Below, piece after piece: positions 2,244 through 27,600 of a stretch of DNA of 64,000 nt. The DNA comes from Pseudomonadota bacterium. GTDB lineage: Bacteria; Pseudomonadota; Gammaproteobacteria; Burkholderiales; Burkholderiaceae_C. Numbering within the stretch: the stretch's first letter is position 1; every line of letters starts with the position of its first letter. The translations under genes were made by a program, and so were the position numbers. The notes beneath the pieces were generated by a model. That model was not told where the DNA came from and made no database searches. It saw only the letters and a program-made list of their open reading frames with translations. The stretch is taken from positions 80,209-144,208 of the forward strand of contig JAIUOW010000005.1 in NCBI GenBank assembly GCA_020161775.1, written 5' to 3'.

Positions 2244-2454
2244 TTGGATTCTACGGGCTGGGTGTTGCAGTGCAATAAGGGCTTGTCTCAGGTGGGACAC
2301 GCCAGCCCGGATACCGCGGAAAGAGCCCCTAAGGGCCCCGACGATTTTGCTTGAGATTTGCCATCCGCATGTCATCCTAGGGGTGCCGGTGCGCACCCGT
2401 GGCGCCGCCGCGGGCAGCCCTGCACCGGACGTACCAGCTTCAAGGAGGATTTAA

Positions 2455-3123
2455 ATGTACGCAACCCTGCCCTATGCGGCCCCCGTCCTTGCGCCTTTCG
2501 CGCTCCCGCCCACCCATCCGGGCCCCGATGTGGACCTGACGGTCAAGGTCCTGCACACGCCCGAGCAGCGCCAGGACATCGCGCACCTGCGCAAGTACGC
2601 GGATTTCCGCTCCGAATACGAGGTCGATCCCGGCATGGCCGCGGTGGACCCGGTCAAGGACGCGCTGGGCCTGGTCATGGCCTTTTGCCGCGAGGGCGAG
2701 GCCATTGCCACCATGCGCTTCATCCCCACGGGCCATGGCATTACCCTGACCGAACGCTGGTGGGGTGGCTACGTGACTGACCCGGCCCTGCTGTCCCACC
2801 AGAGCTGGGAGGTGGGCCGCCTGGTCATGGCGCCCGAGCACCGCCAGGAAGGCCTGCTGCCCCAGTGCATGACCATGGCGTTTGTGCAGCTGCTCGAACT
2901 GGCCGACGTGCAGCACATGCACGCCACCTGCCACATGGCCATGACCCGCCTGTACCGGCGCTTTGGCTTTGGCATCCACGCCAAGCGCATCCATGGCGAC
3001 AAGGACTGCGCGCTGATCCACGGCCGCGTGGCGGATGTGGCGCGTTGCCTCAAGGTGCCGTTGCGCCAGGCCTTTGCCGCCCCCGCACAGGCCATTTCTG
3101 AGCAGGTGCCCGTGCTACAGTGA
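2455..3123 (+). CDS. GNAT-fold acyltransferase resembling autoinducer synthase / N-acyl amino acid synthase (LuxI/FeeM clan), copy 1
   Basis: Strong SD AAGGAGG at 2442-2448. The 222-aa product has motifs SWEVGRLVMAPEHR and TRLYRRFGF in its C-terminal half. It is a paralogue of the frameshifted gene at 16052..16710. Confidence 0.75.
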   Translation: MYATLPYAAPVLAPFALPPTHPGPDVDLTVKVLHTPEQRQDIAHLRKYADFRSEYEVDPGMAAVDPVKDALGLVMAFCREGEAIATMRFIPTGHGITLTERWWGGYVTDPALLSHQSWEVGRLVMAPEHRQEGLLPQCMTMAFVQLLELADVQHMHATCHMAMTRLYRRFGFGIHAKRIHGDKDCALIHGRVADVARCLKVPLRQAFAAPAQAISEQVPVLQ

Positions 3124-3140
3124 CCGGCCAAGGGAGTCAC

Positions 3141-5195
3141 ATGAAGGCGGCACTGCGCAACCTGTTCGAGTATTACCGCGCCCATCACGAAATGGAGCGG
3201 CCACTGCTGCAGTGGATCGGCGTGATGGGCTGCATCGCATTCCCGCTGTTCTATGTGATGCGGCGCGCCGTCGCCGCGCCCGGCTATGACGACCTGTGGC
3301 TGCGCCTGCTGGCTGCCGTGCTGTGCCTGGGCCTGGCTCTGCGCCGCCGCTGGCCGCAGCAGCTGCGCAGCTGGTACATCGGGTACTCCTGGTTTGTCGT
3401 CTTCTACTGCCTGGCGTTCTTCCTGTCCTACATCATGCTGCGCAACCACGGCGGCACGCCCGCGGTGGTGAACATGGTGGTGGGCGCCGTGCTGGTCATC
3501 CTGCTGGCGGACTGGCGCAACGCCATCACCATGCTGCTGGCCGGCTACATCGCGGCCGCCGTGGCGCACATGCTGACCGACCCGCAGCCCGAGCTGCTGC
3601 GCGAATTCATCTTCGCCGCTGGCGGCTCGTTGCTGCTGGTGGCTGGCGGCGCGCTGTACCACCAAGGGCAAAAGCGCGTGGAAATCCACCGCATGCGGCG
3701 GGTGTATTCGGGCTTGGCCGGCTCCATTGCCCATGAAATGCGCAACCCGCTGGCGCAGATACGCCATGCGCTGGACAGCATTGCCGCCACGCTGGCCGAC
3801 GGCACGCCCGGCGGCGGGCGCCAGCTGGACGCGGGCCAGGTCCAGGCGGTGCTGGCCATCGTGCAGCAGGGCCGCGACGCCGTGGCCCGTGGCCTGCAGG
3901 CCATTGACCTCACGCTGCAGCAGCTGCAGCCCCAGCCGCTGGAGGGCTCCCGGCTGCAATGGGTGAGCGCCCTGCCCGCGGTGCGCCGCGCGGTGGATTC
4001 CTTTGGCTACGACGAGCCGGGCCAGCGTGAGCGCGTGCGGGTACGTGATGACGGCGGCTTCAGCTTTCGTGGCGACCCGGCGGCGATCGAGCTGGTGCTG
4101 TTCAACCTGCTGAAGAACGCGCTGTACTACCTGCCGCTGTACCCGGCCATGACCGTGACCCTCACCGTCTCGGCACAGCCATCGCCGCGCATCGTGGTGC
4201 GCGACACCGGCCCTGGCATCCCGGCGGACCTGCTGCCCAAGCTGTTCCGTGAATTCCAGACCTCGGGCAAGGTCGAGGGCACGGGCCTGGGCCTGGCCTT
4301 TTGCCGCCGTGTGATGCAGGCGCTGGGCGGCGACATCCAGTGCCGCTCGGAGCACGGGCATTACACCGAATTCACGCTGTCATTCCCGCAGGCGGAACCA
4401 GCCCAGGTGGCGCCGCCGCCCGAGCCGGCGCCCGTCCAGCAGCCGCTGGCGGGCCGCACCGTGCTGGTGGTGGACGACCAGGCGCTGAACCGCGGCATTG
4501 CGCGCGGCATGGCCCGAAAGATGGGCCTGAACGTCATCGAAGCCGAGCACGGCCAGCAGGCGCTGGACCTGCTGGCCGGCGGTACCGTGCCGGACGTCAT
4601 CCTCATGGACATCAGCATGCCGGGGCTGGACGGCATCACAGCCACGCACCGCCTGCGCGGCATGCCCGGCGCGGCGGCCCGTGTGCCCGTGCTGGCGCTG
4701 ACCGCCAATGATTCAGCGGCGGTGCAGGACGCGGCCCGCGCGGGCGGCATGCAGGGCGTGCTGTGCAAGCCCATCGACGCCGCGGCGTTGCAGCGGGCGC
4801 TGGCCAGCGTGCTGCTGGCAGAGCCGCCCGCAGCGGCGGTGGGCTGTGCCCCGGTGCTGAACCTGCGGCGCATGGACGACATCCAGCGCCTGGGCCTGCT
4901 GCACGAACTGCTGCCAGGGGCGCTGGCCGACATGCGCCGGCACCTGCAGGCACTGGAGCAGGCGCATGAAGCGGGTCAGGCCGAGGGCGCCACCCAGGCG
5001 CTGCATGCGCTGGTGGGCCTGTCGGGCGAAGGCGGCGCGCAGGCCCTGCATGAGCGGGCCCGGCAGTGCTATGCCGACCTGCTGAACGGACAGCCGATGG
5101 ACGGTCAGGCCGTGGCAGACCTGCACAGGTTGCTGGCCGCCACACAGGAGGCGCTGTGGCGCCACTACGGGGTCCACCCGGCGGCGCCCGCCTGA
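3141..5195 (+). CDS. hybrid sensor histidine kinase (polytopic membrane sensor - HisKA - HATPase - REC - Hpt), copy 1
   Basis: ATG 3141 follows AAGGGAG. This start aligns MKAALRNLFEYYR with MINTWARLFAHYR of the paralogue; GTG 3120 is an alternative. The first ~190 aa are hydrophobic, with about 6 TM segments and short loops. Domain motifs: H-box SIAHEMRNPL, G2 box GTGLGLAFCRRV, REC DVILMDISMPGLDG, Hpt HALVGLSGEGGA. Confidence 0.85.
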   Translation: MKAALRNLFEYYRAHHEMERPLLQWIGVMGCIAFPLFYVMRRAVAAPGYDDLWLRLLAAVLCLGLALRRRWPQQLRSWYIGYSWFVVFYCLAFFLSYIMLRNHGGTPAVVNMVVGAVLVILLADWRNAITMLLAGYIAAAVAHMLTDPQPELLREFIFAAGGSLLLVAGGALYHQGQKRVEIHRMRRVYSGLAGSIAHEMRNPLAQIRHALDSIAATLADGTPGGGRQLDAGQVQAVLAIVQQGRDAVARGLQAIDLTLQQLQPQPLEGSRLQWVSALPAVRRAVDSFGYDEPGQRERVRVRDDGGFSFRGDPAAIELVLFNLLKNALYYLPLYPAMTVTLTVSAQPSPRIVVRDTGPGIPADLLPKLFREFQTSGKVEGTGLGLAFCRRVMQALGGDIQCRSEHGHYTEFTLSFPQAEPAQVAPPPEPAPVQQPLAGRTVLVVDDQALNRGIARGMARKMGLNVIEAEHGQQALDLLAGGTVPDVILMDISMPGLDGITATHRLRGMPGAAARVPVLALTANDSAAVQDAARAGGMQGVLCKPIDAAALQRALASVLLAEPPAAAVGCAPVLNLRRMDDIQRLGLLHELLPGALADMRRHLQALEQAHEAGQAEGATQALHALVGLSGEGGAQALHERARQCYADLLNGQPMDGQAVADLHRLLAATQEALWRHYGVHPAAPA

Positions 5196-10493: not shown

Positions 10494-12125
10494 TCAAAGC
10501 CCGGGCAGCTTGTAGTCCTTGAGCATTTCACGCAGGCGGGTCTTCAGCATCTTTCCGGTCGCACCCAGCGGGATCGCCTCCACGAAGACCACATCGTCGG
10601 GCACCTGCCACTTGGCCACGGCCTTGCCCTTGTAGAACTCCAGCAGTTCTTCCCTGGTGACTTCGGCTCCGGGCTTTTTGACCACGGCCACGATGGGCCG
10701 CTCGTCCCACTTGGGGTGCGGCATGCCCACGCAGGCCGCCATGGCCACCGCCGGGTGCGCCACGGCGATGTTCTCGATATCGATGGAGCTGATCCATTCG
10801 CCGCCGGACTTGATCACGTCCTTGCTGCGGTCGGTGATCTGCATGTAGCCGTCGGGGTCGATCGTGGCAACGTCGCCGGTGGGGAACCAGCCGTCTTTCA
10901 GTGGGTCGCCGCCCTCGCCCTTGAAATACTCGCGCACGATCCAGGGGCCCTTGACGTACAGGTCGCCGAAGGCCTTGCCGTCCCACGGCAGCTCGGTGCC
11001 GTCGTCGCCCACGATCTTCATGTCCACGCCATAGATGGCCCGGCCCTGCTTGAGGCGGATCTTCATCTTGTCGGCGTCGGACAGCGAGAGGTGCTTGTTC
11101 TTGAGCGTGCACAGCGTGCCCAGCGGGCTCATCTCGGTCATGCCCCAGGCGTGCAGCACCTCCACGCCGTAATCGTCATTGAAGGCCGTGATCATGGCCG
11201 GCGGGCATGCAGAGCCGCCGATGACCGTGCGCTTGAGGGTCGAGAAGCGCAGGTTGTTGGGCTTCATGTGGCCCAGCAGCATCTGCCACACGGTAGGCAC
11301 CCCAGCGGCGTAGCTGACCTTCTCGGCTTCGATCAGCTCGTACACCGACTTGCCGTCCAGCGCCGGGCCGGGAAACACCAGCTTGGCGCCGGTGAGCGCG
11401 GCCGAATAAGGGATGCCCCAGGCATTGACGTGGAACATCGGCACCACGGGCAAGATGGCGTCGCGCGCCGACAGGCACATCACATCGGGCAGCGCCGCCG
11501 CATAGGCATGCAGGATGGTCGAGCGGTGGCTGTACAGCGCGGCCTTGGGGTTGCCGGTGGTGCCGCTGGTGTAGCACATGCTGGACGCGCAGTTCTCGTC
11601 AAAGCTGGGCCAGGCATAGCCAGTGGGCTGCTGGCCCAGCAAGGCCTCGTAGCTCAGCAGGTTGGGAATGCCGCTGTCGGCGGGCAGCTTGTCCGCGTCG
11701 CACAGCGCCACCCAGTGCTTCACCGTGGTGCATCGCGCATGCACCGCCTGCACGATGGGCAGGAAGCTCATGTCAAAGAACAGCACCTGGTCTTCGGCGT
11801 GGTTGGCAATCCAGACGATCTGGTCGGGGTGCAGGCGCGGGTTGATGGTGTGCAGCACGCGGCCCGAACCACTCACACCAAAGTACAACTCCAGGTGGCG
11901 GTAGCCGTTCCAGGCCAGCGTGGCCACCCGGTCGCCAAAGCCCAGCTTGAGGCTGTCCAGCGTATTGGCAACCTGGCGCGAACGCGCCGCCACGTCACGC
12001 CAGGTGTAGCGGTGAAGATCACCCTCAACGCGGCGCGAGACGATTTCGGCGTCGCCATGATGGCGCTCGGCGAAGTGGATCAGCGACGAAATCAACAGCG
12101 GTTGGCTTTGCATCAAACCCAGCAT
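10494..12125 (-). CDS. AMP-dependent acyl-CoA synthetase (long-chain fatty acid-CoA ligase family)
   Basis: AMP-binding motif [12 protein letters not shown] and motifs GWFPTGD and [16 protein letters not shown]. Likely start [11 protein letters not shown] (ATG 12125), preceded by AAGGAG. Confidence 0.9.
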
Positions 12126-12362
12126 GGGTACAGCTCCTTGGTGCGAAATGAATGACTGGATAAACGTGAATTGTTCATTCTGCTGCACCGCCAGCGCAAG
12201 CGATGTCGTGTTGTGGACATTTGATCAGCGTTAACCCTAGGGCCAGCGGCTACCGCACACTCGCGCCATGCTGGCCGACATCAGTCCGTTCGGGCGCATC
12301 GGCATCCTGCACGAAGCAGGCCTGACGGCCGTGGCCCACCAGCCGGCGCACGAGGCTGCGGA

Positions 12363-13529
12363 TCAGGATACCAGCGGCTTGAAGTAAAGCGTGACGGTGG
12401 TGCCCTGCCCCAGCTGCGACTGGATCTGGATCGCACCGCCCGCAGCCTGCATCACTCGCTGGCAGAACATCAGGCCCATGCCGTTGCCACCGCTGTCCGC
12501 GCGCGTGGTCACGGGCTCATGGGTCAGGCGCGCCAGCACATCGGGGGGTATGCCGGGGCCGTTGTCGGCAAAGCGCATCCAGGGCCGCCGCACGCCGTCG
12601 GCGTCCGCGGCGTCCTGGCCGACTTCAAGGCACAGGCTTGCGCCGGGCTGGCCGCGCAGCGCCAGCAGTGCGTTCTTGGTCACGGTGCATAGCACCAGGT
12701 ACAGCAGGTCGCGCCGGCCGGGCAGCTGGAAGTCGGCCTCGATCCGGCTGCTGACGCAGGTGTGTTCGTTCTCCTCGAACGGAAACTCGTCCAGCAGCGC
12801 GGCGACCAGCCCGCTGGCGTTGACGGTCTGCGGCAGGGCGCCAGGGTAGGCGTCGCGCGCCGACTGCACAAAGGTGGACACCAGCGACTGGCAGTACAGC
12901 GCGGCGCGCCCTGCCCTTTGCAGCGCGCCCACCAGCTGGCCGGGTCGGTCCTCGCTGAATTGCGCCACGCCCGCCGGGCCGTCAGGGCCGGGCGCCTGGT
13001 AGCGGTCAGCCACCGATCCGACGAAGCCCCGGATGGTGCCCAGCGGCGTGTTGAGCTCATGCGCCAGAAAGCCCAGCGTTTCGCGCAGGGCCGACACGCG
13101 GCCTTCGTTCAGGGCACGCTCAAACGACTGCGCGCGGTGCAGCGCCAGGGCCTCGCGCAGCGCTTCGCGCGTGAGCGTATCGTCCAGCGGCTTTTCCAGG
13201 ATGCGCAGCACCTTGCCCTGGTTGACGGCGGCAATGGCCACGTCTTTTTCGGCGTAGGCCGTGGCCAGCAGCCGGATCAGGTGGCGATGCTCGCGCTGCA
13301 CGGTGCGCAGCAGCTTCATGCCGTCCCGCTCGGGCATGCGGTAATCGGTCATCAGCACGGCAAATTCGTGCTCGCGCTGGCTGAGCAGGGCCAGCGCCTC
13401 GCCGGCGCCGCCGGCGGTGACGATGGTGAACTCGTCACCAAAGGCCCGGGCAAACCATTTGCGCGAGGTGGCTTCGTCGTCCACGAACAGGATGGCGCGG
13501 GGTTCCTGCAGCGATTCGGGTGCGAGCAT
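12363..13529 (-). CDS. response-regulator receiver fused to histidine kinase core (REC-HisKA-HATPase)
   Basis: N-terminal REC (ILFVDDE...LMTDYRMPERDGM), H-box LGFLAHELNTPLGTIRG and G2 box GNGMGLMFCQRVMQ. It starts 36 nt downstream of the hybrid kinase stop, so same operon. Confidence 0.85.
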   Translation of the reverse strand: MLAPESLQEPRAILFVDDEATSRKWFARAFGDEFTIVTAGGAGEALALLSQREHEFAVLMTDYRMPERDGMKLLRTVQREHRHLIRLLATAYAEKDVAIAAVNQGKVLRILEKPLDDTLTREALREALALHRAQSFERALNEGRVSALRETLGFLAHELNTPLGTIRGFVGSVADRYQAPGPDGPAGVAQFSEDRPGQLVGALQRAGRAALYCQSLVSTFVQSARDAYPGALPQTVNASGLVAALLDEFPFEENEHTCVSSRIEADFQLPGRRDLLYLVLCTVTKNALLALRGQPGASLCLEVGQDAADADGVRRPWMRFADNGPGIPPDVLARLTHEPVTTRADSGGNGMGLMFCQRVMQAAGGAIQIQSQLGQGTTVTLYFKPLVS

Positions 13530-13565: not shown

Positions 13566-16055
13566 TCAGGCCGCGCGCAGGTGCGACACGCCCAGGGCGT
13601 ACTGGCGAAGCGCGCCTTCGGTGCGCACGGCCAGCGCGCGGATTTCGGCAGGCCAGTCGGCCCCACCGGGCCAGCGATGAGCTTCGAGCATGGGCACATA
13701 GTAGCTGCGCACGCGCTGGTACAAGGCGGCGGCACCCGCCTCGCCGCTCATGCCCAGCAGCGAATGCAAGGCGTCCAGGCCGGCGTCCAGGTCACCCTGG
13801 GCCACGGCTTCATCCAGCCGGTCCACAAGGCGCGCCATCTCCGGCAGGTAGTCGCCCAGCAGCTCGTCGATCATGCCCAGGCGCCGGTAGTTTTCAAGCC
13901 GCCGCGAGTCCAGCAGGTCGTCGATGGTGCCCGCCGGCGCCAGCGTGCCCTGCGCCACCGGCCGCACCGCCCTGCCCGTGAGCCGGCACAACAAGGTGTA
14001 CAGCAGGGACACATCCACCGGCTTGGTGATGAAATCATTCATGCCCGCCTCGCGGGCCGCGTTCACGGTGAACGCGTCGGAGTGCGCCGTCAGCGCGATG
14101 ATGGGCAGGCTGGCCAGCGCCGGGCCACTGGCGCGGATGGCGCGGGCCGTTTCCAGGCCGTCCATGCCGGGCATGTTGATGTCAATGACCAGTGCGTCCC
14201 ATTGGGCGCGCCGGCTGAGGATGTCCAGCACCTCGCCGCCATGGCTGGTCTCCACCACCTCGGCGCCGGCATGGCGCAGATGGGCCGCCACGGCCTTGCG
14301 GTTCCAGGCGCTGTCATCGGCCAGCAGCACAGCGCAGCCCGCCAGCAGCGCGGCACCGGCCGAGACGCCGGGGCGGGACAGCGCGTCGCACAGCGCCTGC
14401 ACCAGCACCCGCTGATCGCTGGGCTTGCTGACAAAACCGTCAATGCCGGCCTTTCGCACCTTGACGCCGGCCAGGTGCGCCGGCTCGCTGGTATGAGCCA
14501 CCAGGGCCACATCGCGGTTGGCGGGCGCGGCGCCCTGGCGTATGGCCGCAGCCAGCGCATAGCCATCCATGCCGGGCATGTTCAGGTCCAGCAGGACCAG
14601 GTCGTAATGCTCGCGCGTCAGCATCTGCATCGCTCGGTAGCCGTCGGCGGTTTCGTCCAGCGTGGCGCCCAGCGGCTGCAGCTTGTGGCGCGTGGTCAGG
14701 CGCAGGGCGGCGTCGTCATCGACCAGCAGGATGCGCCGGCCCTGCAGCACGCCGCGCGCCTGCGCCAGCACGGCGGCATGGCTGGCCTCGGCATCGGCCT
14801 GCGCCACGGCGGGAAAGCCCAGCGTGAACTCGGTGAACTCGCCGGGCACGGACGCGCATTCGATGCTCCCGCCAAAGGCCCGCATCACCCGCTGGCAATA
14901 GGCCAGGCCCAACCCGGTGCCGCCGGACTTGCCCATGGAGCGGAACGGCTCGAACAGGCCAGGCAGCACCTCGGGCGCAATGCCCGGCCCGGTGTCGCGC
15001 ACGCGCACCTGGTGCGGCTGCACGGTGATGGTCAGGCGCACACCGGGGTACTGGGCCCGGTAGTACAGCGCGTTCTTGATCAGGTTGAACAGCACGAACA
15101 GATAGGCGGTCTCGTCGCCACGGAAGCTGAAATCCTCCACCACGTCCACCTGCACGCTGCGCCGGGCATCGTCGTCCTCGTAGCTGTATTCCTGCACCGC
15201 CTTGCGCGTGGCCTCGGCCGCGGACAGGTGCGCAAAGCCGGCGGTGTCCAACGGCTTGGCATTGACCTCGTCCAGCGTCATGGCGATCACCTGCAGGCCG
15301 CGGTTGACCGCGATTTCGCTTTCGGCCAGGTGGCGGTACAGCGCATCGACCTCACGCCCGCCCAGGGTCTGCGGCTGCGCGGCCGCGCCGGGCGCGGGCA
15401 GTGCCTGCTGGATGTTGTGCAGGCTGTGCTTGAGCTGGGACAGCGGGTGGCGCATCTCGTGCGCGATGGAACCCGCCAGCGCCTGCGTGGCACGCAGCTT
15501 GCGCTCGGCGTCAATCTGCTCGGTGGAAAACTTGAACAGGTTACCGCCAATGACGATAAGGATGAACGCGGGCAACTGCGCGACCAGGTCCATGGGGATA
15601 CGGGGGTTGGGCGTGGTGGCCATGTAGATGCCCGCGGCCATGGCGACGCCGGTGAACAGCATCACCAGGGTGTTGCGCCAGTCGGTCAGCAGGACGAGGA
15701 AGCACAGGGTGATGAAGGCGTTGGAAATGGCGGGCACACCGCCGCCACGCTGCAGGGCCACCAGCGTTGTAAAGCATGGCAGGCAGTAGAGGACCGCGAA
15801 GTAGGAATAGGCGATGTAGTGCCGCTTGAACTTCTGGGGCCAGTGGTCCTTGAGTGCAAGAAGCGCCAGCATCAGGATGGCGCTGCCGCGCAGCAGGATG
15901 TCGTCGAACAGCTGGGCGTTGGGCCGCGTGAAGCGGATGAAGTAGAACACCAGCAACGAGACCACGCCCAGGTAGCCCATGTATTTGAGCCGCGGCGGCC
16001 CATAGGCGTGATAGTCGCGGTAGTGGGCGAAAAGCCTGGCCCATGTATTGATCAT
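13566..16055 (-). CDS. hybrid sensor histidine kinase (polytopic membrane sensor - HisKA - HATPase - REC - REC - Hpt), copy 2
   Basis: Hydrophobic N-terminal ~190 aa. Motifs: H-box SIAHEMRHPLSQ, GTGLGLAYCQRV, two REC domains (LLDLNMPGMDG and VIDINMPGMDG) and Hpt HSLLGMSGEAGA. ATGA overlap with the upstream GNAT stop. Confidence 0.9.
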   Translation of the reverse strand: MINTWARLFAHYRDYHAYGPPRLKYMGYLGVVSLLVFYFIRFTRPNAQLFDDILLRGSAILMLALLALKDHWPQKFKRHYIAYSYFAVLYCLPCFTTLVALQRGGGVPAISNAFITLCFLVLLTDWRNTLVMLFTGVAMAAGIYMATTPNPRIPMDLVAQLPAFILIVIGGNLFKFSTEQIDAERKLRATQALAGSIAHEMRHPLSQLKHSLHNIQQALPAPGAAAQPQTLGGREVDALYRHLAESEIAVNRGLQVIAMTLDEVNAKPLDTAGFAHLSAAEATRKAVQEYSYEDDDARRSVQVDVVEDFSFRGDETAYLFVLFNLIKNALYYRAQYPGVRLTITVQPHQVRVRDTGPGIAPEVLPGLFEPFRSMGKSGGTGLGLAYCQRVMRAFGGSIECASVPGEFTEFTLGFPAVAQADAEASHAAVLAQARGVLQGRRILLVDDDAALRLTTRHKLQPLGATLDETADGYRAMQMLTREHYDLVLLDLNMPGMDGYALAAAIRQGAAPANRDVALVAHTSEPAHLAGVKVRKAGIDGFVSKPSDQRVLVQALCDALSRPGVSAGAALLAGCAVLLADDSAWNRKAVAAHLRHAGAEVVETSHGGEVLDILSRRAQWDALVIDINMPGMDGLETARAIRASGPALASLPIIALTAHSDAFTVNAAREAGMNDFITKPVDVSLLYTLLCRLTGRAVRPVAQGTLAPAGTIDDLLDSRRLENYRRLGMIDELLGDYLPEMARLVDRLDEAVAQGDLDAGLDALHSLLGMSGEAGAAALYQRVRSYYVPMLEAHRWPGGADWPAEIRALAVRTEGALRQYALGVSHLRAA

Positions 16056-16710
16056 TGCGTCGTCCTCTCCCTATGACCAGCCGATACCGCTGCCCGCACC
16101 GAGGGCACATTACCATGGATCAGGGAATATGACTCACCCGACTGAAGGCACGCATCTTTGACAAGCACGGAAAACCCGAAGCGCCTGTAAAGACGGCTCA
16201 ATACCGGGGTGCAAGTCGCCAGAAAATTCGCTGAAGGAATCAGTTCAACGAAACGCATGAGCGTCAGGGAAAAGCAGGTTTTCAGGACTTCTGGCTGGGT
16301 GCGGTGCGCGGGTGCCAGAACGAGCCGCCCCACCTCCCAGCCATCGTCATACACCTGGGGTGCCAGTTGCGGCAACCCCTGGAGGATGGTGTCGCAGGGC
16401 GCAAGTCCGCGACCGATCGGGACGAGGCGGATGGTGCCGATGAACTCGCCGTGCAGTTCGAAAGCACCCACAAACCCCACCTCGTCTCTTTTTTTTCGAG
16501 CGCAACGAAAGCCGGGTCCTGCCTGACCGCGTCGGGCAGGCTGAGTTCTTCGCGCAGGTGAAGCACGCCGGCAATTGCCTGCGGCGTGGTCAGGTGGCGA
16601 AAACGTATTTCTTCGGTGCGGGGCTGCGGGTACCGCAGCGGATCGATGGCGTACGCCGCAGCCTGGCCCGAGCCAGGCTGCCACGAAGCCGGCGCGTGAT
16701 GTGTATTCAT
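16052..16710 (-). pseudogene. LuxI/FeeM-like GNAT acyltransferase, copy 2, interrupted by a 1-nt frameshift at an A8 tract (pseudogene, homopolymer sequencing error, or recoded gene)
   Basis: The N-terminal frame (ATG 16710 after AAGGGAG) reads MNTHHAPASW...AFVALEKK. The C-terminal frame reads RDEVGFVGAFELHGEFIGTIRLVP...GWEVGRLVLAPAHR...SRLYRRFGF, ending at 16052. The frames switch at T8 16489-16496. A9 would give a 219-aa protein colinear with the 222-aa copy 1. Confidence 0.8.
16489..16496 (-). repeat. A8 homopolymer (A_AAA_AAA slippery heptamer in the upstream frame) at the frameshift site
   Basis: Direct reading of ctcgtctcTTTTTTTTcgagcgc on the plus strand. Confidence 0.95.
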
Positions 16711-16932: not shown

Positions 16933-18696
16933 ATGTCCAGCACACGCGCCCGTTCGCCCGCAACGGCGGCTGCTGCCTGCCTGGCCGCGCTGACCCTCCT
17001 GGCGCCGGGCTACCCCAGGGCCCAGGCAACGGTCCCGGCGCCGGAGCAGGCGGCTCAGGAGGGCCTTCGCCGCCAGGAGCAGCGCAACCGGGAGCAGCAA
17101 AAGTCAGCCCAGCCGCAGGCAGACCAATTGAGGCACGAGGCAGCGCCCCTGCCAGCGCGCGAGTTACCGCAGGAGTCCCCCTGCTTCACTATCCATGAAC
17201 TGGCGCTGGGCGGCAGGGATGCGGGCCGCTTCGGCTGGCTGCTGGACGCAGCCCTGCCCTACCTGCGCCGCTGCGTGGGTGCCCAGGGGCTGAGCTTCAT
17301 TGCCGCTGGAATGGACCAGCAGCTGCGCGACCTGGGTTATGCCACCACCCGCGTGGCGCTGCCCGCGCAAAACCTGCGCGCCGGCCAGTTGCTGGTGCAT
17401 ATCGAAGCCGGCCGGGTGGCCGACATCCGCGCTGTCCGGGCGGACGCCGCACCCGGCACGCCTGACACGCCCGACACCCAATGGGGCACATGGCGCAACG
17501 CTTTTCCCGTCGCGGCGGGCGACATCCTGAACGTGCGCGACCTGGAGCAAGGCGTGGAGAACATGAAGCGCCTGCCCAGCCAGGCTGTGGCCACGCGGCT
17601 GGAGCCGGGCGACGCGCCCGGCTCCAGCGTGCTGTACATCGAGCGCAAGGGCGGCGCGCTGAAGGACCGCCTGCGCGGTGGCGCCACGCTGGACAACTCC
17701 GGTGGCGCAAGCCTGGGGCGCACGCAGCTGTCGGCCAACCTTGCCTTTGACAACCCTTTGGGCCTGAACGATGTCGTCACGGCCAGCCTGAACACCAACG
17801 CTGAACGGCCCACAGCCACGCACCGCAGCCAAGGCGCGAGCATCAGCTACAGCCTGCCCTGGGGCTACAACCTGCTGACGCTGCACGCCAGCAACAACCG
17901 GTTTGCGCAGTACGTCCAGGGAACGACCGTGCGTTTCCTTTCCAGCGGGCGCAGCCAGGGCGCCGAGGCGCGGCTGCAGCGCACGGTGCTGCGCACCGCC
18001 AGCACCAAGGTGGGCGTCTATGGCGCGGTGTCCACGCGACGGGCCATCAGCTATCTGGATGATGTGGAGGTCGTCATCCAGCGCCGGCGCACCACCAGCG
18101 TGGAAGCCGGCCTGAGCTACAAGCACCTGTTTGAAAAGTCCAGCCTGGAGCTGGACCTGGGCGTGCGCCGCGGCATGCCCTGGCACGGCGCGCAGGACGA
18201 CTTCGCATCTGCGCGCGAAGGCGGGCTCACGCTGCGGCCCAAGGTCTGGAGCCTGAGCGGCGCCTACGCCACAGATGTGACCCTGGCCGGGCGGGCGCTG
18301 CAATACAGCGTCCATCTGCGGGGCCAGCACACCCGCGACACCACGCTGTCGGCGGACCAGATGGCCATTGGGGGGCGATCCAGCGTGCGTGGCTTTGACG
18401 GCGACGCCGTGCTGCTGGCTGAAAACGGCATCGCCTTGCGCAATGAGCTCACCGCGCCGGTGAAGCTGTGGGACGGCATGGACACCGCCGCCCTGCTGGC
18501 CATTGACTATGGCCGCGTCTGGGGCCCCAGCGACATCCTGCTGACCGGCAAAAAGCTCGCCGGACTGGCGCTGGGCCTGAAGGGCCGCCGCGGCGCCACC
18601 CAGTTTGAGGTCACGCTGGCCACACCTCTTGCCAAACCCGATGGCTTTGCCACGCGGGACCTGAGCCTGTACCTCTCATTGACCCAGGGTTTCTGA
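16933..18696 (+). CDS. cdiB: two-partner secretion outer-membrane transporter (ShlB/FhaC/HecB family), CdiB
   Basis: Signal peptide MSSTRARSPATAAAACLAALTLLAPGYPRAQA and a C-terminal beta-barrel ending ...LYLSLTQGF. It lies immediately upstream (1-nt gap) of a TPS-domain exoprotein. Confidence 0.85.
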   Translation: MSSTRARSPATAAAACLAALTLLAPGYPRAQATVPAPEQAAQEGLRRQEQRNREQQKSAQPQADQLRHEAAPLPARELPQESPCFTIHELALGGRDAGRFGWLLDAALPYLRRCVGAQGLSFIAAGMDQQLRDLGYATTRVALPAQNLRAGQLLVHIEAGRVADIRAVRADAAPGTPDTPDTQWGTWRNAFPVAAGDILNVRDLEQGVENMKRLPSQAVATRLEPGDAPGSSVLYIERKGGALKDRLRGGATLDNSGGASLGRTQLSANLAFDNPLGLNDVVTASLNTNAERPTATHRSQGASISYSLPWGYNLLTLHASNNRFAQYVQGTTVRFLSSGRSQGAEARLQRTVLRTASTKVGVYGAVSTRRAISYLDDVEVVIQRRRTTSVEAGLSYKHLFEKSSLELDLGVRRGMPWHGAQDDFASAREGGLTLRPKVWSLSGAYATDVTLAGRALQYSVHLRGQHTRDTTLSADQMAIGGRSSVRGFDGDAVLLAENGIALRNELTAPVKLWDGMDTAALLAIDYGRVWGPSDILLTGKKLAGLALGLKGRRGATQFEVTLATPLAKPDGFATRDLSLYLSLTQGF

Positions 18697-18697
18697 C

Positions 18698-21600
18698 ATG
18701 CACCCACGCACCCGAGCGATCCTCAACCGCCTGGCGCAACGCCTGAGCGCTGCAGACCATGCACTGAAAACCCAGCTGACCCAGCCGATGTCAGGCCCTG
18801 CACCACGCCCCTGGCTGCGCCGCGTGGCCCGGGTGTTCACATCGCTGTTCATTGCGCAGACCGTGATGGCTGGGGTGCCCGCGTATGCGCAAGTCACCGC
18901 CGCACCCGGCGCGCCTGCTGGCCAGAAGCCGTTGATCGACGCGGCGGCCAACGGCACCCCCATCGTGCTGATCGCGCCGCCCAGCCAGCGCGGCGTCAGC
19001 CGCAACCAGTACGACCAGCTCAACGTCGGCCCCAAAGGCCTGATCCTGAACAACAGCACCGCCAATGTGCAAACGCAGATCGGCGGCTGGATCAGCGGCA
19101 ACCTGCAGCTGGGCCGCACACCGGCGCGGATCATCCTGAACGAAGTCACCGGCCCTCAGGCCAGCCAGCTGCGCGGCACGATCGAAGTTGGCGGACAAAA
19201 AGCCGACATCGTGATCGCCAACCCCAACGGCATCACCTGCAGCGGCTGCGGCTTCCTGAACGCGGACCGCGCCACGCTCACCACCGGCACACCGCAGATC
19301 GGCGCCAACGGCACGGTCACCGGCTTTGACGTGCGCCAGGGCGTGATCCAGATCGGCCCCGAAGGCTTGAACGCAACCGAACAACAGCAGCTGGACCTGC
19401 ACGCCCGCGGCCTGGTGATTGAAGGCGAGGTGTACTCGCAGAACCTGCAGGCCGTGATCGGCGCCAACCAGGTGGTTTACGGCACGCTGCATGCGCTGGT
19501 GCAGGCCACCGCGCAAGACGGCACCGGCGAGGCGCCGCGCCTGGCAGTGGACATCAAGGCGCTGGGCGGCATGTATGCCGGGCAAATCTACCTGATCGCA
19601 ACCGACAAAGGCCTTGGCGTCAACAGCACCGGGCGCGCAGCCACCCTGTCGGGCAACCTGGTGCTGTCGGCCAACGGCGACCTGACGCTCAAGGACACCT
19701 ATGCAACGGGCGATGTCCGGCTCGCGTCGGCCGGCAAGACCACCCTGACGGGCCAGACCGTGGCTGACGGCGCGGTGACCATCAACGCCGGGGACCAACT
19801 GACCCACAGCGGTGCGCTGCAGGCGCCCACGCTGCAACTGAACGCCCCTGCCCTGCACAACAGCGGCAGCATCACCCAGACGAAGGCAGGCGCCAACCTG
19901 GGGCTGACGCTGCCCGGAGGCCTGAACAACAGCGGGCAAATCTACACGCCGGGCAACCTGACGGTGCAGGCTGGCGCCGTCAGCACCGGCGCAGCCCATG
20001 GAACGATGACAGGCCAGCTGAGCGCCGGAGGCTCCCTGCAGGTATCGGCCGCCCAGCTGCAACTGACCGGGCAGCAACTGGCCGCCAACGGCAACATCAC
20101 CCTGGACGCCAGCGGCAAGCTGGACGTGACAGGCACCACCGTATCGGCCAACGGGCAGACCCGGTTGGCCGGTAGTGAAATCGCGCTGGAGCGTGCGCGG
20201 ATTGCGGCTGTGGGCAATGTGCAGATCACCAGCCAGGGCGTGGTCACGGCGAACGCGGCGGACATCAGCAGCAACGCGACGCTCAGCGTCCAGGGCAGCC
20301 GTGTAGATGTCAGCGCGGCCACCATGACGGCCGTGGTCACGGCCAGTATCAAGGCGGACGGTGAAATCAAACTGGACGGCAGCCAGCTTGCCGCGGGCCA
20401 GCGCGTGGAGCTGGTGGGCCAAGGCATCAGCACGCCCGGCGCGACGGTCACCGCAGACAAAATCACCATCGACGCAGGCGCGGGCGCACTGACCAACCCC
20501 GGCGGCAAGATCCTGGCCAGCTCCGCTGAAGCGGACGCGCTCACGGTCAATGCGACCGGTATCACCAACCAGGGCGGCGAGCTGCGCGCCAATGGCGGGC
20601 TGACGCTGGACGCACGCGGCGGTGTGATCGACAACACGGCAGGCGTGATCGCGGGCACCACCGGCGCGTTGACCAACCTGGGCGGCCTGACCAACAAGGG
20701 TGGCATCCTCTACACGCAAAGCGACCTCTCCATCGCCAGCACCGCGCTGGACAACAGCGAAGGCGCCATCGTCACCGCCGGCAGCCTGAGCGTCAGCACG
20801 CCCGGCCAGACCATCAACAACACCAAAGGCCTGATGCAGGCGGGCGGCTCGGTCAGCCTGGACAGCGGCAGCGCGGACCTGAAGAGCGCGGACGGTACCG
20901 TCGTGGCAGGCACGCAACTGACGGTCAACGCCGGTACGGTGGACACGGCGGAAGGCACGCTGGCCGCGGGCACCGACATGACCGTGACGGCGGGCCAACT
21001 GCAGGCGGGCAGCGCCAAGCTGGGCAGCGGCGGGGCCATGAACATCACGGCCAGCGGCAATGCCGGCTTGGGCACGGCGGAAGTCGGCGCCGGTGGTGAT
21101 CTGTCCATTCAAGCCGGTACCGTGCAGGCCACCGGCGCCAACGTGGCCAGCAACGCCAATGTGCAGGTCACCGGCGGCAGCATCACCGGCGGCAACTGGT
21201 CAGCGCAAGGCAACCTTGCGGCGACCAGCGCGGGTGCGCTCAACGTCACGGGCGGCAGCCTGCTGGCGGGCGGAGACCTGACAGCACAAGGCCAGGGCAT
21301 CGTCACGGACAACGCCAGGCTGGGCGGCCAGACGGTCACGCTGAACGCGGGCACGGGCGCCTTGAGCAATGTGGGAGGCCAGATCCACGGCAGGGCCAAC
21401 CTGCACATCCAGGCCAGCCATCTGGCCAACCGCAACGGCACGGTGGCCACCGGCGGTGCCCTGACGCTACAGGGTGCCGCGCTGGAGAACCACGCGGGCA
21501 CCCTGCAGGCCGCGGGCAACCTGACCATCCATACGGCAGGCCAGGCCCTGGACAACACCGCAGGCAAGATCATCTCGGGCGGCAACACGATCGTACAGGC

Positions 21601-24600
21601 CGGTGCATTGAGCAACAGCGGCGGCACGATCAGCGCGGGTGGAACGGCCCATGTGCAGGCTGCGGCCCTGAACACGGTCCAGGGCCAGATCAGCGGCACC
21701 CGCCAGCTGGACATCCTGGTGACCCAGCGCCTGACAGCCGTTGGCGCCACGCTGGGCACAGAGGGCAAGTTCACGGCCAGCGCGGGCGAGATCGACGCCC
21801 GGTCTGCGACGGCCACGGCTGGCGAAACGCTGGCGGTCGCATCGTCAGGTGCGCTGGATATGCGCAGTGCCACCATCACGGCCCAGGGACCGCAGGCGGG
21901 TGACATCCAGATCACCGGCGGCAGCGTCACCGCAGGCAACGCCGCGATCACGGGCGGCGCAGGCGTGGCCCTGGCCTCGGGTGGCGCGATAGACGTGGAC
22001 GCCGCGAACATCGCGGCCCTGAGGACACTGGCCGTGCAGGCGGGTGCAGCGCTGACGGCTGATGCCGCCACGATCCAGACCAACGAACAACTCACGATCA
22101 CGGGAACGACGGTTGCCGCGACCGGCGCTACGCTGTCAGCCGGCGGCAAAGCGGAAGTCACAGCCACCACCGGCGCAGCCACTTTGAACAACGTCAGTCT
22201 GATGGCTGGCGACACGGCGGCAGTGACTGCCGTCGGTATCGCCGCCACAGGTGCCTCCATCGGCGCGGTGAACAACGTGACGCTGAACGCCGGTACCGGC
22301 GATTTCACGGCACCCAACGCTTTGGTGCAAAGCCAGAGCGCCAGCATCAGCCTGAACGCGGCCAACGTCAACGTGACGGGTAGCCCGGCGGCAGGCGCGG
22401 CACCCACCACGGGTTTGCTGGCAGGCCAGGCCATCGCGATCACCGCCACCGGCGCAGTGGACGTGTCGGGCGCTGCTACCTACGCCGGCACCGATATCAC
22501 CATTACGGCGCAAGGCAGCATCATCAACAACGCCGGGCGGATCATCGCGGGCAACCAGGCCAGCCTGAGCGGCGCCGTCCTGAACAACCGGGGCGGCACC
22601 ATCGACGCCAACGGCCCCATCGCCGTCAGCGTCACCACCGGCCAGGTCAACAACGACCAGGGCCGCATCAGTACGCGCGACGTGCTGACCATGAGCACAC
22701 CCACAGGCGGCGCTGCAGGCCCGCTGACCAGCCTGACCAACGCAGGCGGCGTCATTGAAACAACAGGCGCGCTTAACGCCCAGCTGCAAAACTTCAACAA
22801 CGAAGGCGGCAGCGTCGTCGCCCTGGCTGGCCTGACCATCACCGGCGGCCCGGTGACCAACACGGGCGGCCAGCTGGCGTCGCAAGGCAATGTCAGCGTC
22901 AACACCCAGGGTGGCGCCTTCAATGGCGACGATGGCAAGGTGCTCAGCACGCTAGGCAACATCATCCTTACCGCTGGCGCCACGACGTTGAACAGCGCGA
23001 CCGTGACGAGTGGCGGAAGCACCACGTTCACCACGGGTGATCTGCAGGCCAGCCAGGCGCGGATCGGCGCGCAAGGGAACTTCAACGCGACGGCCAGCGG
23101 CGCCGTGACCGCAGACCGGGCCGTGATGGCCGCTGGCGGCAGCGCGGGCATCGCGGCAACGCAGGGGATTGCCGTCAATGGCGGCAGCGTCAGCGCACAA
23201 ACCATCCGCCTGGATGCGGGAAGCGGCGTACTGAACAACACATCGGGTAACCTGACCGCACGGACCACCACGGGCACGGCCATGACGCTGCAAGGCCAGG
23301 GCCTGACCAATGACGGCGGCATGATCGCCTCCAATGCCGACCTGAGCATCAACGCCGGTGCGGGCAGCTCGAGCAACGCGGCGGGGCAGATTCTGGCGGT
23401 GGGCGCAGCCGACATCCGCTCGACGGGACTGAACAACGTGGGCGGCACCATCGCCGCCAACGGCAACCTGACGATCAACGCGGCCCAGGCCCACGCGAAC
23501 GCCGCCACCGACAGCACTGGCGGCACGATCCAAAGCGGCCAGAACATTGCGCTCACGGCGGGCTCCACGACACTGACCAACGCCACCATCACCAGCGGCG
23601 GCAATACCACGCTGAGTACAGCAGCGCTGCAGGCCAACCAGGCCCGCATCAACGCAGGAGGCAACTTCAGTGCAACATCCAGCGCGGCAGTGACCGCGCA
23701 GCAGCTGGCATTGGCGGTGGGGGGCAGCGCAGCCATTACGGCCGCCCAAGGCATCGACCTCAGCGGGGGGAACGTCAGCGCCCAGACGATCAACGCGACC
23801 GCAGGCGGTGTCCTGAACAACACCTCCGGCAACCTGACGGCCAGCGCCACCACTGGCACGGCGCTCACGATGCAGAGCCAGGGCCTGGTCAACGACCAGG
23901 GCACCATCGCCTCCAATGCGGGCCTGAGCATCAACGCGACCACGGGCAGCGCCAGCAACGCTGCCGGCCGGGTGCTGGCGCTGGGCGTGGCCGATGTGCG
24001 GTCCACCGGCATGAGCAACGTGGGCGGCACCATGACCTCCAACGGCAACCTGACCATCAACACCGTTCAGGCCCACGCGAACGCCGCCATCGACAGCACG
24101 GGCGGCACGCTGCAAAGCGGCCAGAACATCACGCTGACCGCAGGCGCCACCACATTGACCAACGCCACCGTCACCAGCGGCGGCAACACCACGCTGAACA
24201 CAGCAGCGCTACAGGCCAATCAGGCGCGCATCAACGCACAGGGCAACTTCAGCACAACATCCAGCGCGGCAGTGACCGCGCAGCAGCTGGCCCTGGCAGC
24301 GGGCGGCAGCGCCGTCATCACGGCTACCCAAGGAATCGACCTCAGCGGGGGCAGCGTCAGCGCCCAGACGATCACCATGAACGCGGGTGGCGTGCTGAAC
24401 AACACCTCCGGCAACCTGACCGCTAGCGCCACCACTGGCACTGCCCTCACGATGCAGAGCCAGGGCCTGGTCAACGACCAGGGCACCATCGCCTCCAATG
24501 CGGGCCTGAGCATCAACGAGACCACCGGCAGCATCAGCAACACCGCCGGGCGTGTGCTGGCATTGGGCGCGGCTGAAATGCGGTCCACCGGCCTCGCCAA

Positions 24601-27600
24601 CGTGGGCGGCACGATTGCGTCCAACGGCAACCTGACGATCAATGCGGCTCAGGCTCACGCCAACGCCGCCACCGACAGCACGGGCGGCATGCTGCAAAGC
24701 GGCCAGAACATCACGCTGACGGCGGGCGCCACGACGCTGACCAACGCCACCGTCACCAGCGGCGGCAACACCACGCTGAACACAGCAGAGCTGCAAGCCA
24801 ATCAGGCGCGCATCAATGCACTGGGCAACTTCAGCGCAACGTCCAGCGCAGCGGTGACCGCGCAGCAGCTGGCCCTGGCGGCGGGCGGCAGCGCCGCCAT
24901 CACGGCAACCCAGGGCATCGACCTCAGCCGGGGCAGCGTCAGCGCGCAGACCATCGCCCTGAGCGCCGGGGGCGTCCTGAACAACACCGGCGGTAACCTG
25001 CACGCGGGCGCCACCACGGGAGACGCCCTCACCTTGCAAAGCCAGGGCCTGGTCAACGACCAGGGCACCATTGCTTCCAACGCCGGTCTGAGCATGCAGG
25101 CGAACACGGGCAGCGTCAGCAATGCCGCTGGCCGCGTGCTGGCGCTCGGCGCGGCCGATGTGCGGTCCACCGGGCTGAACAACGCAGCCGGGACCATCGC
25201 CTCCAACGGCGACCTGACGATCAATACAGTCCAGGCCCACGCGAACGCCGCCACTGACAGTACGGGCGGCACGCTGCAAAGCGGTCAGAACATTGCGTTG
25301 GCGGCAGGCAGCACCACATTGACCCACGCCACGGTCACCAGCGGCGGCAATACCACCCTCACGACTGGCGTTTTGCAGGCCAGCCAGGCCCGCATCAACG
25401 CACTGGGCAACTTCACCGCCACCTCCAGCGGCGCGGTGATGGCCGACCGGATGGCCTTGGCGGCCGGTGGCAGCGCAGCCATCACCGCAGCGCAAGGCAT
25501 AGACGTCAACCGGGGCAGCGTCAGCGCCCAGACCATCAACCTGAACGCCGGTGGCGGCGCGCTGAACAACAACGCAGGCAGCATCCAGGCCGTGGGCGCG
25601 CTCGACATCCGGTCCACAGGCCTGAACAACCGCGCCGGGACCATCGCCTCCAACGGCGACCTGACCCTCAACGCGACGCTGGCCAACGCCATCGCCACGC
25701 TGGACAGCACCGATGGCGCCGTTCGCAGCGCCCAAGCCATCACCCTGACGGCGGGCGCCACCACCTTGACCAACGCCACGGTCACGAGCGGCGGCAACAC
25801 CACGCTGAACACGGCCGACCTGCAGGCCAGTCAGGCCCGCATCAACACGCTGGGCAACCTTACCGCCACCGCCAGCGGCGCGGTGACAGCCGACCAGGTG
25901 ACCCTGGCGGCGGGCGGCAGCGCGGCCATCACGGCTACGCAGGGCATCGATGTCAACCGCGGCACGGTGAGCGCGCAGACCGTCAACCTGAATGCCGGCG
26001 GCATCCTGAACAACAACGCAGGCAGCCTGACCGCGACGGGTGCGGCCGACATCCGATCCGCCGGCCTGACCAACGTGGACGGCACCATCGCCTCCAACGG
26101 CGCGCTGACGGTGAATGCAGCCCAAGCCAACACGGACGCTGGAACGAACAACACGCGCGGCACGATCCGCAGCGCCCAGTCCAGCGTCACGCTGACCACA
26201 GGCGCGCTGAACAACGCCAACGCAGACATCGGCGCAGCCGAAGACGTGCGGATCACCGCCACTGGCGCGCTGACCAACGACCAGGCCCGCATCGTCGCTG
26301 GACGGGACCTGACCCTCGGCGCCAATGCTGTGGGCAACACATCGGGCCTGATTGCAGGCAACCGCAACGCAACGCTGACGGTGGGCGCGGGCGGTGTCAC
26401 GAACACCAGCGGCACCATTCAGGCGGCAAACGACCTGACCGTCACGTCCGCAGGTGACGTGGCCAACACCAGCGGCCAGCTGCTGGCGGGCCACCAGCTG
26501 ACCCTGAGCGGCGCGGCGCTGACCAACAGCCAGGGCCAGATCGGCGCGCAAACCGGCAGCGCCACGCTGGCCGTCACCTCCTACATCAACATCGGCGGCA
26601 GCGTGGTGGCGGGCGGCGCCCTGACGCTGGACACCCAGGGCGGCGCGCTCACGGCCAATGGGTCCACATTGGCCAGCGGCGCCGACATGACGCTGCGCGC
26701 GGGCGCGGCCCAACTGAGCGATGCGGCTATCACGGCTGGCGGCTCCATCAACGCGCAGGTCACGAGCCTGGAAGCTACCCGCGCCAACGTGCAGGCAGCA
26801 GGCAACCTGAGCGCCACGGCGGGCGCCGGTGCTTTCAACGCAGCCAACAGCACCTGGCAGGCAGGCCAGGCGGTGGCGCTCACGGGCGGCGCTGTTGCCG
26901 TGACCGACGCCACAGTCTCAGCCAACACGACGGTCGCCGTCACCGGCGCCAGCGTGGACGCCACGCGCGCCAGCATCACCAGCCCGGGCGACGTGAGCGT
27001 GGTGGCCACCCACGGTGCGCTGGACATCACCCACGCCAGCCTGTTGGCGGGCCGCGACCTGACTGCGACCGGCACCGGCGCGGGCACCACCACCGGCGCT
27101 CAGGCCCTGGCCGGGCGCGACCTGACCCTGGGCAACGGCACGGCCTTTGACTTTGCCGCAGCCAACCTGCAATACCAGTTTGGCCGCGATCTGACGGTGC
27201 GCGCGCAAGGCATCAGCACGGCGGGCCAGCAAGTGTCCGCACGCAACCTGACGCTGGACGCGGGCAGCGGCCAGCTGAACAACCAGGGCGGCACCCTGCA
27301 AGCGACGGGCACGCTGACCGCCAGCGGCACGGGCCTGAACAACCAAAGCGGTGTGATCGCGGCCAACGGCGCCGTCACCGCCAGCGCAGGCACCGGCACC
27401 CTGAACAACGCGGGCGGCAAGATCTACAGCACCCAGGGCGCTACCAGCGTCGCCGGTGCAGCCATAGCCAACGCCACCGGCACCCTCAGCGCCGCCACCG
27501 ACGTCAGCATCACCGGCGGCACGCTGAACAACTCGGGCAACACCATCGCGGCAGGCCGCAACCTGACCGCCACCCTGAGCGGCGCGGTGAACAACGCAGG

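Follow-up and report, generated by a model that had tools for sequence, protein, structure and literature searches.

Does a gene for an acyl-transferring enzyme, followed immediately by a gene for a membrane-embedded hybrid histidine kinase, represent the two halves of a chemical signalling system, one making the signal and the other sensing it? The question is raised by a locus near the start of a 64,000-nucleotide stretch of a Burkholderiales contig (JAIUOW010000005.1, assembly GCA_020161775.1), hereafter the window, in which a FeeM-like GNAT acyltransferase gene directly precedes the gene of a CqsS-type kinase (system 1, or type 1; a paralogous type-2 system lies in the same window). Environmental DNA screens brought bacterial N-acyl amino acid synthases to light more than 20 years ago, yet, to our knowledge, what their products do in their native setting is still largely unclear. 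We likewise know of CqsS-type receptors only as sensors of the alpha-hydroxyketones made by CqsA or LqsA, and we found in the searchable literature no description of a pairing of CqsS-type kinases with a GNAT, with FeeM or with N-acyl amino acids. Our analysis suggests that the type-1 locus is probably a pair of genes for an autoinducer synthase and its receptor, built like CqsA/CqsS with the synthase replaced, and that it represents an undescribed cell-to-cell signalling system with a new kind of lipid signal.

The synthase candidate of system 1 is a 222-aa FeeM-like GNAT acyltransferase encoded at 2455–3123 on the plus strand, an assignment based on the open reading frame, the Pfam FeeM model, a family profile and an AlphaFold2 (AF2) model. 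A Shine-Dalgarno sequence, AAGGAGG, can be read at 2442–2448 on the same strand, with 6 nt between it and the ATG at 2455, and the two motifs quoted in the initial annotation are both present, WEVGRLVMAPEHR as W118–R130 and LYRRFGF as L166–F172. In an alignment of 43 homologs, W118, E119, R122, R165, L166, R169 and G171 are invariant; W118, E119 and R122 constitute the WE(V)GR motif of the protein, and R88 sits in a TxRxxP motif. The kinase gene (3141–5195, plus strand) most likely starts at the ATG at 3141, 18 nt past the GNAT stop codon, and this start is preferred because AGGGAG precedes it at 3131–3136, at a distance of 4 nt, and because homologs align from residue 1–8. Both genes are under purifying selection, with ratios of nonsynonymous to synonymous substitution rates against orthologs of 0.1–0.4 for the GNAT and 0.04–0.47 for the transmembrane (TM) domain of the kinase; they are therefore real genes and no chance open reading frames.

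The type-1 kinase comprises four parts, all on the plus strand: a sensor domain of the CqsS/LqsS type with six TM helices (aa 1–185, 3141–3695, from hydropathy, a TM profile and BLASTP), a DHp/HisKA plus HATPase core (3696–4430, with the His198 codon at 3732–3734, from Pfam and the NCBIfam LuxN model), a receiver domain (4446–4808, with the Asp490 codon at 4608–4610, from Pfam Response_reg and an LMDISMP motif) and a C-terminal Hpt domain (4863–5195 including the stop codon, with the His622 codon at 5004–5006, from Pfam Hpt). The Pfam matches are strong for HATPase_c (81.7 bits) and Response_reg (78.6 bits) and weak for HisKA (E 6e-4) and Hpt (E 0.017), and H198, D490 and H622 all lie in canonical motifs, namely the H-box AHEMRNPL, in which H198 aligns with H194 of CqsS, the LMDISMP motif of the receiver and the Hpt motif LHALVGLSGEGGA, which is kept in the paralogous kinase. 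By Kyte-Doolittle hydropathy, the hydrophobic segments span approximately residues 22–40, 52–67, 78–99, 107–123, 127–146 and 154–174, the loops between them have 4–11 residues and there is no periplasmic domain; the positive-inside rule predicts an N-in/C-in topology, in which N terminus and H-box are both cytoplasmic. The observation from which the initial annotation set out, of a 222-aa reading frame behind a strong Shine-Dalgarno sequence and, 18 nt downstream, a kinase with six TM helices, short loops, no periplasmic domain and the order HisKA, HATPase, REC and Hpt, is thus confirmed as a whole by reading frames, motifs, domains, topology and purifying selection. The six-helix membrane bundle is the only sensory module predicted in the type-1 receptor, and by alignment it is a homolog of the CAI-1-binding bundle of CqsS.

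This homology is drawn from database proteins. Proteins that carry the JGI name 'CAI-1 autoinducer sensor kinase/phosphatase CqsS' are recovered with a TM-domain profile at E ~1e-65, together with partial Vibrio hybrid kinases, and in BLASTP the type-1 kinase aligns with a Vibrio anguillarum protein (P0139) at E 4e-34 over residues 16–322, collinear from residue 16 through all six helices and the DHp domain. Identity with the Vibrio TM domains is approximately 25–30%, and G30, R55 and P72 are invariant across the Vibrio, type-1 and type-2 domains. Searches of an index of 5.8 billion proteins with the TM domain returned 11 proteins by sequence and 39 by profile, in both cases mostly fragments, numbers that are sufficient for the CqsS link and too few for a survey of the family; the contigs of P0139 end at the kinase gene. 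No PDB structure matches the TM domain, and the isolated domain matches no NCBIfam model. For the whole kinase, the best NCBIfam model is LuxN, at 210 bits against a cut-off of 1550 and over model positions 445–835, which covers the cytoplasmic part only; NCBIfam has no CqsS model, and CqsS itself, in a sequence that we take to be that of V. cholerae, also matches LuxN best. That sequence aligns with the type-1 kinase at E 2e-61 and was used only as a lead. It proved near-identical to Vibrio P0139 and P0145, and its residue numbering (H194, W104, S107, F162 and C170) fits the published one (PMC3376566); membership of the CqsS group rests on the database proteins and not on this sequence. On these alignments, the TM sensor of the type-1 kinase is homologous to the CqsS/LqsS alpha-hydroxyketone receptors. 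The initial annotation had likened the pair to LuxM-LuxN in genetic logic, with unrelated families; this part has to be revised, since the kinase is related to known quorum-sensing receptors and the homology makes CqsA-CqsS, with the synthase swapped, the true analogy, and it strengthens the case for a signal synthase/receptor pair.

CqsS and LqsS are six-TM receptors of alpha-hydroxyketones, the ligand specificity of CqsS is set by residues of TM4 and TM6, and lqsA or cqsA clusters with the receptor gene, including in Burkholderia, Ralstonia and Polaromonas (PMC3376566). The specificity residues of CqsS (W104, S107, F160, F162, F166 and C170) are not conserved in the window kinase, where they correspond to A108, N111, S163, L165, G169 and Y173. 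The replacement is systematic: an asparagine occupies the S107 position in all 28 type-1 proteins and in 11 of the 12 type-2 proteins, the gatekeeper positions F160, F162 and F166 are serine, leucine and glycine in the window and in most type-1 proteins, an aromatic residue at the F160 position is kept in 8 of the 12 type-2 proteins, and the W104 position is variable. Such a pattern fits a class of ligand different from that of CqsS.

What, then, might the GNAT make? Its best Pfam match is FeeM (PF21926; 30.6 bits against a cut-off of 27, E 3.4e-7), and the FeeM hidden Markov model (HMM) matches all 43 aligned relatives, with a best E of 3.9e-10. The Acetyltransf_1 match of the type-1 GNAT falls below that family's own cut-off, and Acetyltransf_5 matches 2 of the 43 relatives. 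An exhaustive HMM search of 1.84e9 proteins with the family returned 146 cluster representatives at E<=1e-3; among ten sampled weaker matches, eight have a Pfam family, which is FeeM in every case, with Acetyltransf_5 in addition in three. The subfamily has an N-terminal motif of its own in the alignment, HLRxYADFxSEYExDPG. The AF2 model (pLDDT 85) adopts a GNAT fold, and its highest Foldseek TM-scores, 0.59, are with FeeM (2g0b) and LasI (1ro5), although the E-values do not set these two apart from acetyltransferases. By these comparisons, the GNAT belongs to a distinct and rare subfamily on the branch of FeeM and the N-acyl amino acid synthases, with a remote link to LuxI. A protein acetyltransferase was considered and rejected as the leading reading, given that a conserved Q/RxxGxG/A coenzyme A (CoA) loop is missing (the relatives carry EHRRADLL) and that the nearest relatives are of the FeeM type. 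Of the LuxI/FeeM-like character proposed in the initial annotation, the FeeM side stands, with FeeM as the best match in place of the small-molecule and protein N-acetyltransferase families and with FeeM and Acetyltransf_5 proteins as the nearest outliers, but the LuxI family Autoind_synth (PF00765) is not matched by the window protein. The suggested tie to the exosortase-associated group is not borne out: the GNAT does not match TIGR03694, with one irrelevant 17-bit match as the entire NCBIfam output, and the locus, flanked by fadB and liv genes, has no exosortase/PEP-CTERM context.

The remote link to LuxI nevertheless calls for consideration of an aberrant LuxI-type synthase of N-acyl-homoserine lactones (AHLs), with the CqsS-like kinase as a membrane AHL receptor in the manner of LuxM/LuxN. 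The sole significant PDB match of the GNAT family profile is indeed the AHL synthase TofI (3p2f, E 2.8e-4), with W118-E119-x-x-R122 aligned on W98-E99-L-S-R102 of TofI and R88 on R69; JGI labels several homologs 'N-acyl-L-homoserine lactone synthetase', and the kinase core scores best against LuxN. However, the N-terminal S-adenosylmethionine-binding block of LuxI is left unaligned in the TofI comparison, Autoind_synth matches 1 of the 43 relatives (E 0.004) against 43 of 43 for FeeM, and the LuxN match is confined to the cytoplasmic part and is the same for CqsS. An AHL system is therefore, in our judgement, very unlikely, and a FeeM-like synthase is the reading that we carry forward.

We then ask whether the two genes belong together. 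In the related loci collected for comparison (L003, L014 and other L-numbers), a CqsS-type TM kinase adjoins 45 of 55 GNAT-family hits; at the other 10 the contig ends first, and counter-examples number zero. In the window, the type-1 locus is flanked on one side by a beta-oxidation operon (fadB, thiolase and acyl-CoA dehydrogenase) and on the other by a Liv-type amino-acid ABC transporter, and the order fadB, GNAT-kinase, livF is found in all eight genome loci (Ramlibacter and Caenimonas) and again in metagenomic relatives at ~50% identity. The pair occurs in at least six genomic contexts, comprising the fadB/liv site, L014, L029 (GC content 50%), the type-2 site, L039, L041 and L054, and in L039 the gene order is altered with the GNAT-kinase linkage kept. 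Synteny between GNAT and kinase in relatives is thus near-universal and extends over several genomic contexts, as the pairing put forward in the initial annotation would lead one to expect. A CqsA/LqsA-type synthase dependent on pyridoxal phosphate (PLP) does not stand next to the receptor, a FeeM-like GNAT lying upstream in the window and in all related loci, and a cqsA-like gene accompanies none of the ~50 loci. In searches of plasmids, neither the GNAT nor the TM domain had a match at E 1e-5. A Paraburkholderia caribensis plasmid, NZ_CP013105.1, carries a kinase (L058, 3852–7493) with a CqsS-type six-TM domain (hhalign 98.5%), two REC domains and an Hpt domain, and a FabH/KAS III-like gene lies 28 nt upstream of it, so that the position upstream of the receptor looks like an exchangeable slot for lipid synthases.

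The conserved neighbourhood also allows another interpretation, in which the GNAT product, an N-acyl amino acid or an aminolipid, would be a private cue for metabolism or membrane state, such as acyl-CoA and amino-acid supply or membrane composition, that the cell reads with its own kinase to adjust its physiology. The beta-oxidation and Liv-type flanks of the type-1 locus would suit such a cue, as would the long-chain acyl-CoA ligase that follows the type-2 system in six loci and the aminolipid synthases among the Acetyltransf_5 relatives of FeeM, and adjacency in itself fits a self cue as well as a shared one. Nevertheless, the linkage is kept without metabolic neighbours in L014, L029, L039, L041 and L054, the second acyltransferase of OlsA type that the making of membrane aminolipids would require is absent, and the characterised members of the receptor family are quorum-sensing receptors (PMC3376566). 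We regard a private cue as rather unlikely and retain a shared signal as the preferred interpretation.

The collected loci differ from the window in several details. In a metagenomic relative, L025 (4880–10164), a tandem GNAT-kinase-GNAT-kinase array lies between fadB and livF. Extra genes occur between the kinase and livF in L012 (7413–9145) and L008 (8757–10843), those of L012 encoding a DUF6402 protein and another of 150 aa; the kinase of L012, at 551 aa, has lost the Hpt domain, and the kinases of other relatives carry one to two REC domains. Across the region compared with window positions 2455–5195, identity between L003 and the window is 93% for the GNAT, 81% for the TM domain and 71% for the whole kinase, with flanks at 94–95%, and this discordant divergence hints at recombination or fast receptor evolution inside the locus. 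The nearest named genomes are Ramlibacter and Caenimonas metagenome-assembled genomes, and cultivable Ramlibacter with the locus include R. humi (L007) and Leaf400 (L008). On L019, a 2.7 kb metagenome contig (Ga0124838_10005684), the encoded GNAT and the N-terminal part of the kinase show 100% identity to their counterparts from window positions ~2455–3970, so the window organism is represented in that sample.

Taken together, the evidence leads us to favour, on balance, a model in which the GNAT is the source of a lipophilic N-acyl signal and the CqsS-type receptor detects this signal within the membrane. In this model, the FeeM-like GNAT would take a fatty acyl group from acyl carrier protein (acyl-ACP) or from acyl-CoA and attach it to an amine, most likely that of an amino acid, yielding a lipophilic N-acyl compound. 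By analogy with CqsS and LuxN, the kinase would autophosphorylate at H198 when no ligand is bound, and phosphate would pass to D490, to H622 and on to a response regulator; as the N-acyl product accumulates in the membrane, it would bind the TM bundle and shift the kinase toward phosphatase activity.

Several observations weigh against this model. The type-1 GNAT exceeds the FeeM threshold by just 3.6 bits, its type-2 paralog matches no Pfam family, FeeM included, and the Foldseek E-values for FeeM and LuxI-type structures are similar to those for many ordinary acetyltransferases. The N-acyl product, its acyl donor and its amine acceptor are all putative. Most type-1 loci represent one orthologous chromosomal site in Ramlibacter-like Comamonadaceae, so much of the synteny count reflects inheritance and not independent assembly, and adjacency of GNAT and kinase is compatible with a secreted population signal and with a private or metabolic cue alike. 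In addition, the neighbourhood of the locus contains no cognate DNA-binding response regulator, and scans for promoters and terminators yielded no consensus.

A second, diverged paralogous GNAT/CqsS-type kinase system lies 9 kb from the first, on the minus strand (16710–12363). Its synthase candidate is a paralogous GNAT with 35% identity to that of system 1 (16052–16710, minus strand; tblastn E 1e-22), read in two frames that join at a run of eight adenines (A8), and its stop codon overlaps the start of the receptor gene as ATGA. The receptor is an 829-aa kinase (13566–16055, minus strand) with a CqsS-type six-TM domain, HATPase, two REC domains and Hpt, assigned by Pfam and by homology to the type-1 kinase, to which it is 38% identical over 557 aa from residue 8 (E 3e-113); its Hpt match of 24.5 bits is essentially at the Pfam cut-off of 24.6. 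A third gene (12363–13529, minus strand) encodes, by translation, a 388-aa REC-HisKA-HATPase protein and is conserved downstream of type-2 kinases, being seen in L015, L041, L046 and L050; Pfam finds REC, HisKA and HATPase in the L015 ortholog.

How is a GNAT gene in two frames expressed? The frames join at the conserved site GAAAAAAAAGAGA (16485–16497, minus strand), in which the A8 tract occupies 16496–16489. Exactly eight adenines and a −1 frame offset, within divergent flanks, are kept in 19 loci from independent assemblies (the window, L015, L018, L039–L053 and L055). Sequencing error and phase variation were both considered and ruled out, since all 19 loci have exactly eight adenines and are out of frame. 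The joined product, ...ALEKK followed by RDEVGFVGAF..., restores EKKRDE.G, as in the in-frame motif of type 1, and L054, the single type-2 relative without the A tract, encodes EKKRD in frame. No conserved RNA structure was found downstream of A8, so that a frameshift stimulated by a stem-loop is unsupported. We therefore consider the A8 site a candidate for programmed −1 ribosomal frameshifting or for transcriptional slippage, with one extra A in the mRNA.

Nine type-2 clusters (L039, L041, L043, L045, L046, L048, L053, L056 and L057) contain a further gene, absent from the window, for a PF14518 'iron-containing redox enzyme', a heme-oxygenase-like iron enzyme of ~223 aa. Its position varies, as the gene may precede the GNAT, follow it or separate it from the kinase, and the loci that bear it group together in one subclade by receptor TM sequence; the enzyme likely tailors the compound made by the GNAT. 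This enzyme also bears on the possibility that an exogenous signal with an amine group (for example, one resembling amino-CAI-1), detected by the CqsS-type kinase, is what the GNAT modifies or inactivates, that the GNAT acylates a protein, or that the two genes are merely co-transcribed. Among the compounds that CqsS-type receptors detect are amino- and enamino-ketones, whose amine is free or vinylogous (PMC3376566), the GNAT could acylate such an amine, and the computed evidence is silent on the direction of the relationship. However, the extra PF14518 enzyme suggests biosynthesis and not quenching, the family clusters with FeeM enzymes, which transfer acyl chains, and cqsA-like genes are missing throughout the collected loci; a role of this kind for the GNAT therefore seems improbable to us, and we continue to view it as a signal synthase.

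Other genes adjoin the type-2 system. An AMP-binding long-chain acyl-CoA ligase is encoded downstream of it (10494–12188, minus strand), as at the type-2 loci L015, L018, L046, L047 and L050, and may provide the acyl donor or be no more than a conserved neighbour. Divergent from the type-2 GNAT, a two-partner secretion pair (16933–35161, plus strand) consists of a 587-aa TpsB of the ShlB/FhaC type and of TpsA, a protein of 5487 aa that contains a TPS domain and haemagglutinin repeats and whose C-terminal 599 residues match no Pfam family. TpsA may be a CdiA-like toxin, and the neighbouring signalling system could have this pair as a target.

The conserved pairing of a FeeM-like enzyme with a CqsS-type receptor leads directly to the hypothesis that N-acyl amino acids or their derivatives act as autoinducers. 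A broader model can be offered tentatively, one that we hold to be conceivable and somewhat short of an even chance, in which the locus would belong to a hitherto unrecognised class of quorum-sensing circuit: CqsS-type six-TM receptors would be a general chassis for lipid autoinducers, with the chemistry set by the upstream enzyme (CqsA, FeeM-like GNAT or KAS III-like), the signal in Ramlibacter-like bacteria would be an N-acyl amino acid that is oxidatively tailored, for example to an enamide, where the iron enzyme is present, and the synthase output of type-2 systems would also be set by A8. If these ideas are correct, the CqsS sensor with its six TM helices would serve as a versatile receptor of lipid signals, its ligand being determined by an exchangeable upstream enzyme, bacterial N-acyl amino acids would gain a native signalling role, and a new class of signal would be added to the quorum sensing of soil and freshwater Betaproteobacteria. 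In that case, the natural receptor variants would also be useful for studying how a membrane-embedded kinase recognises amphiphiles, and the A8 site would offer a rare example of a signal synthase under the control of recoding.

Comparison with known systems helps to place the type-1 locus among them. The closest are CqsA/CqsS and LqsA/LqsS, which have a homologous receptor design (six TM helices with short loops, the H-box AHEMRNPL, HATPase and receiver) and a synthase gene that adjoins the receptor gene, whereas the synthase there is the PLP-dependent CqsA or LqsA and here a FeeM-like GNAT; moreover, the Hpt domain is fused to the kinase here, in contrast to the separate LuxU of Vibrio. LuxM/LuxN, the AI-1 system of Vibrio harveyi, similarly places a synthase beside a polytopic hybrid kinase, and LuxN binds an acylated signal in the membrane, but its nine-TM sensor is unmatched here and LuxM belongs to another synthase family. 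With the FeeM N-acyl amino acid synthases (PF21926/PF13444), the GNAT shares its fold, a score above the Pfam threshold and the WExxR catalytic-strand motif that is common to LuxI-type enzymes, yet it belongs to a distinct, rare subfamily with its own N-terminal motif and lies outside any exosortase/PEP-CTERM context. LuxI/LuxR resembles the present system in its acyl-transferring relative of the GNAT and in a presumably lipophilic amide signal; it differs in that LuxR is cytoplasmic, whereas the receptor here is a membrane histidine kinase, and in that the GNAT is unmatched by Autoind_synth. The design of a synthase with a membrane kinase is thus a known one in quorum sensing, and the novelty of the locus lies in the pairing of a FeeM-like GNAT with a CqsS-type receptor.

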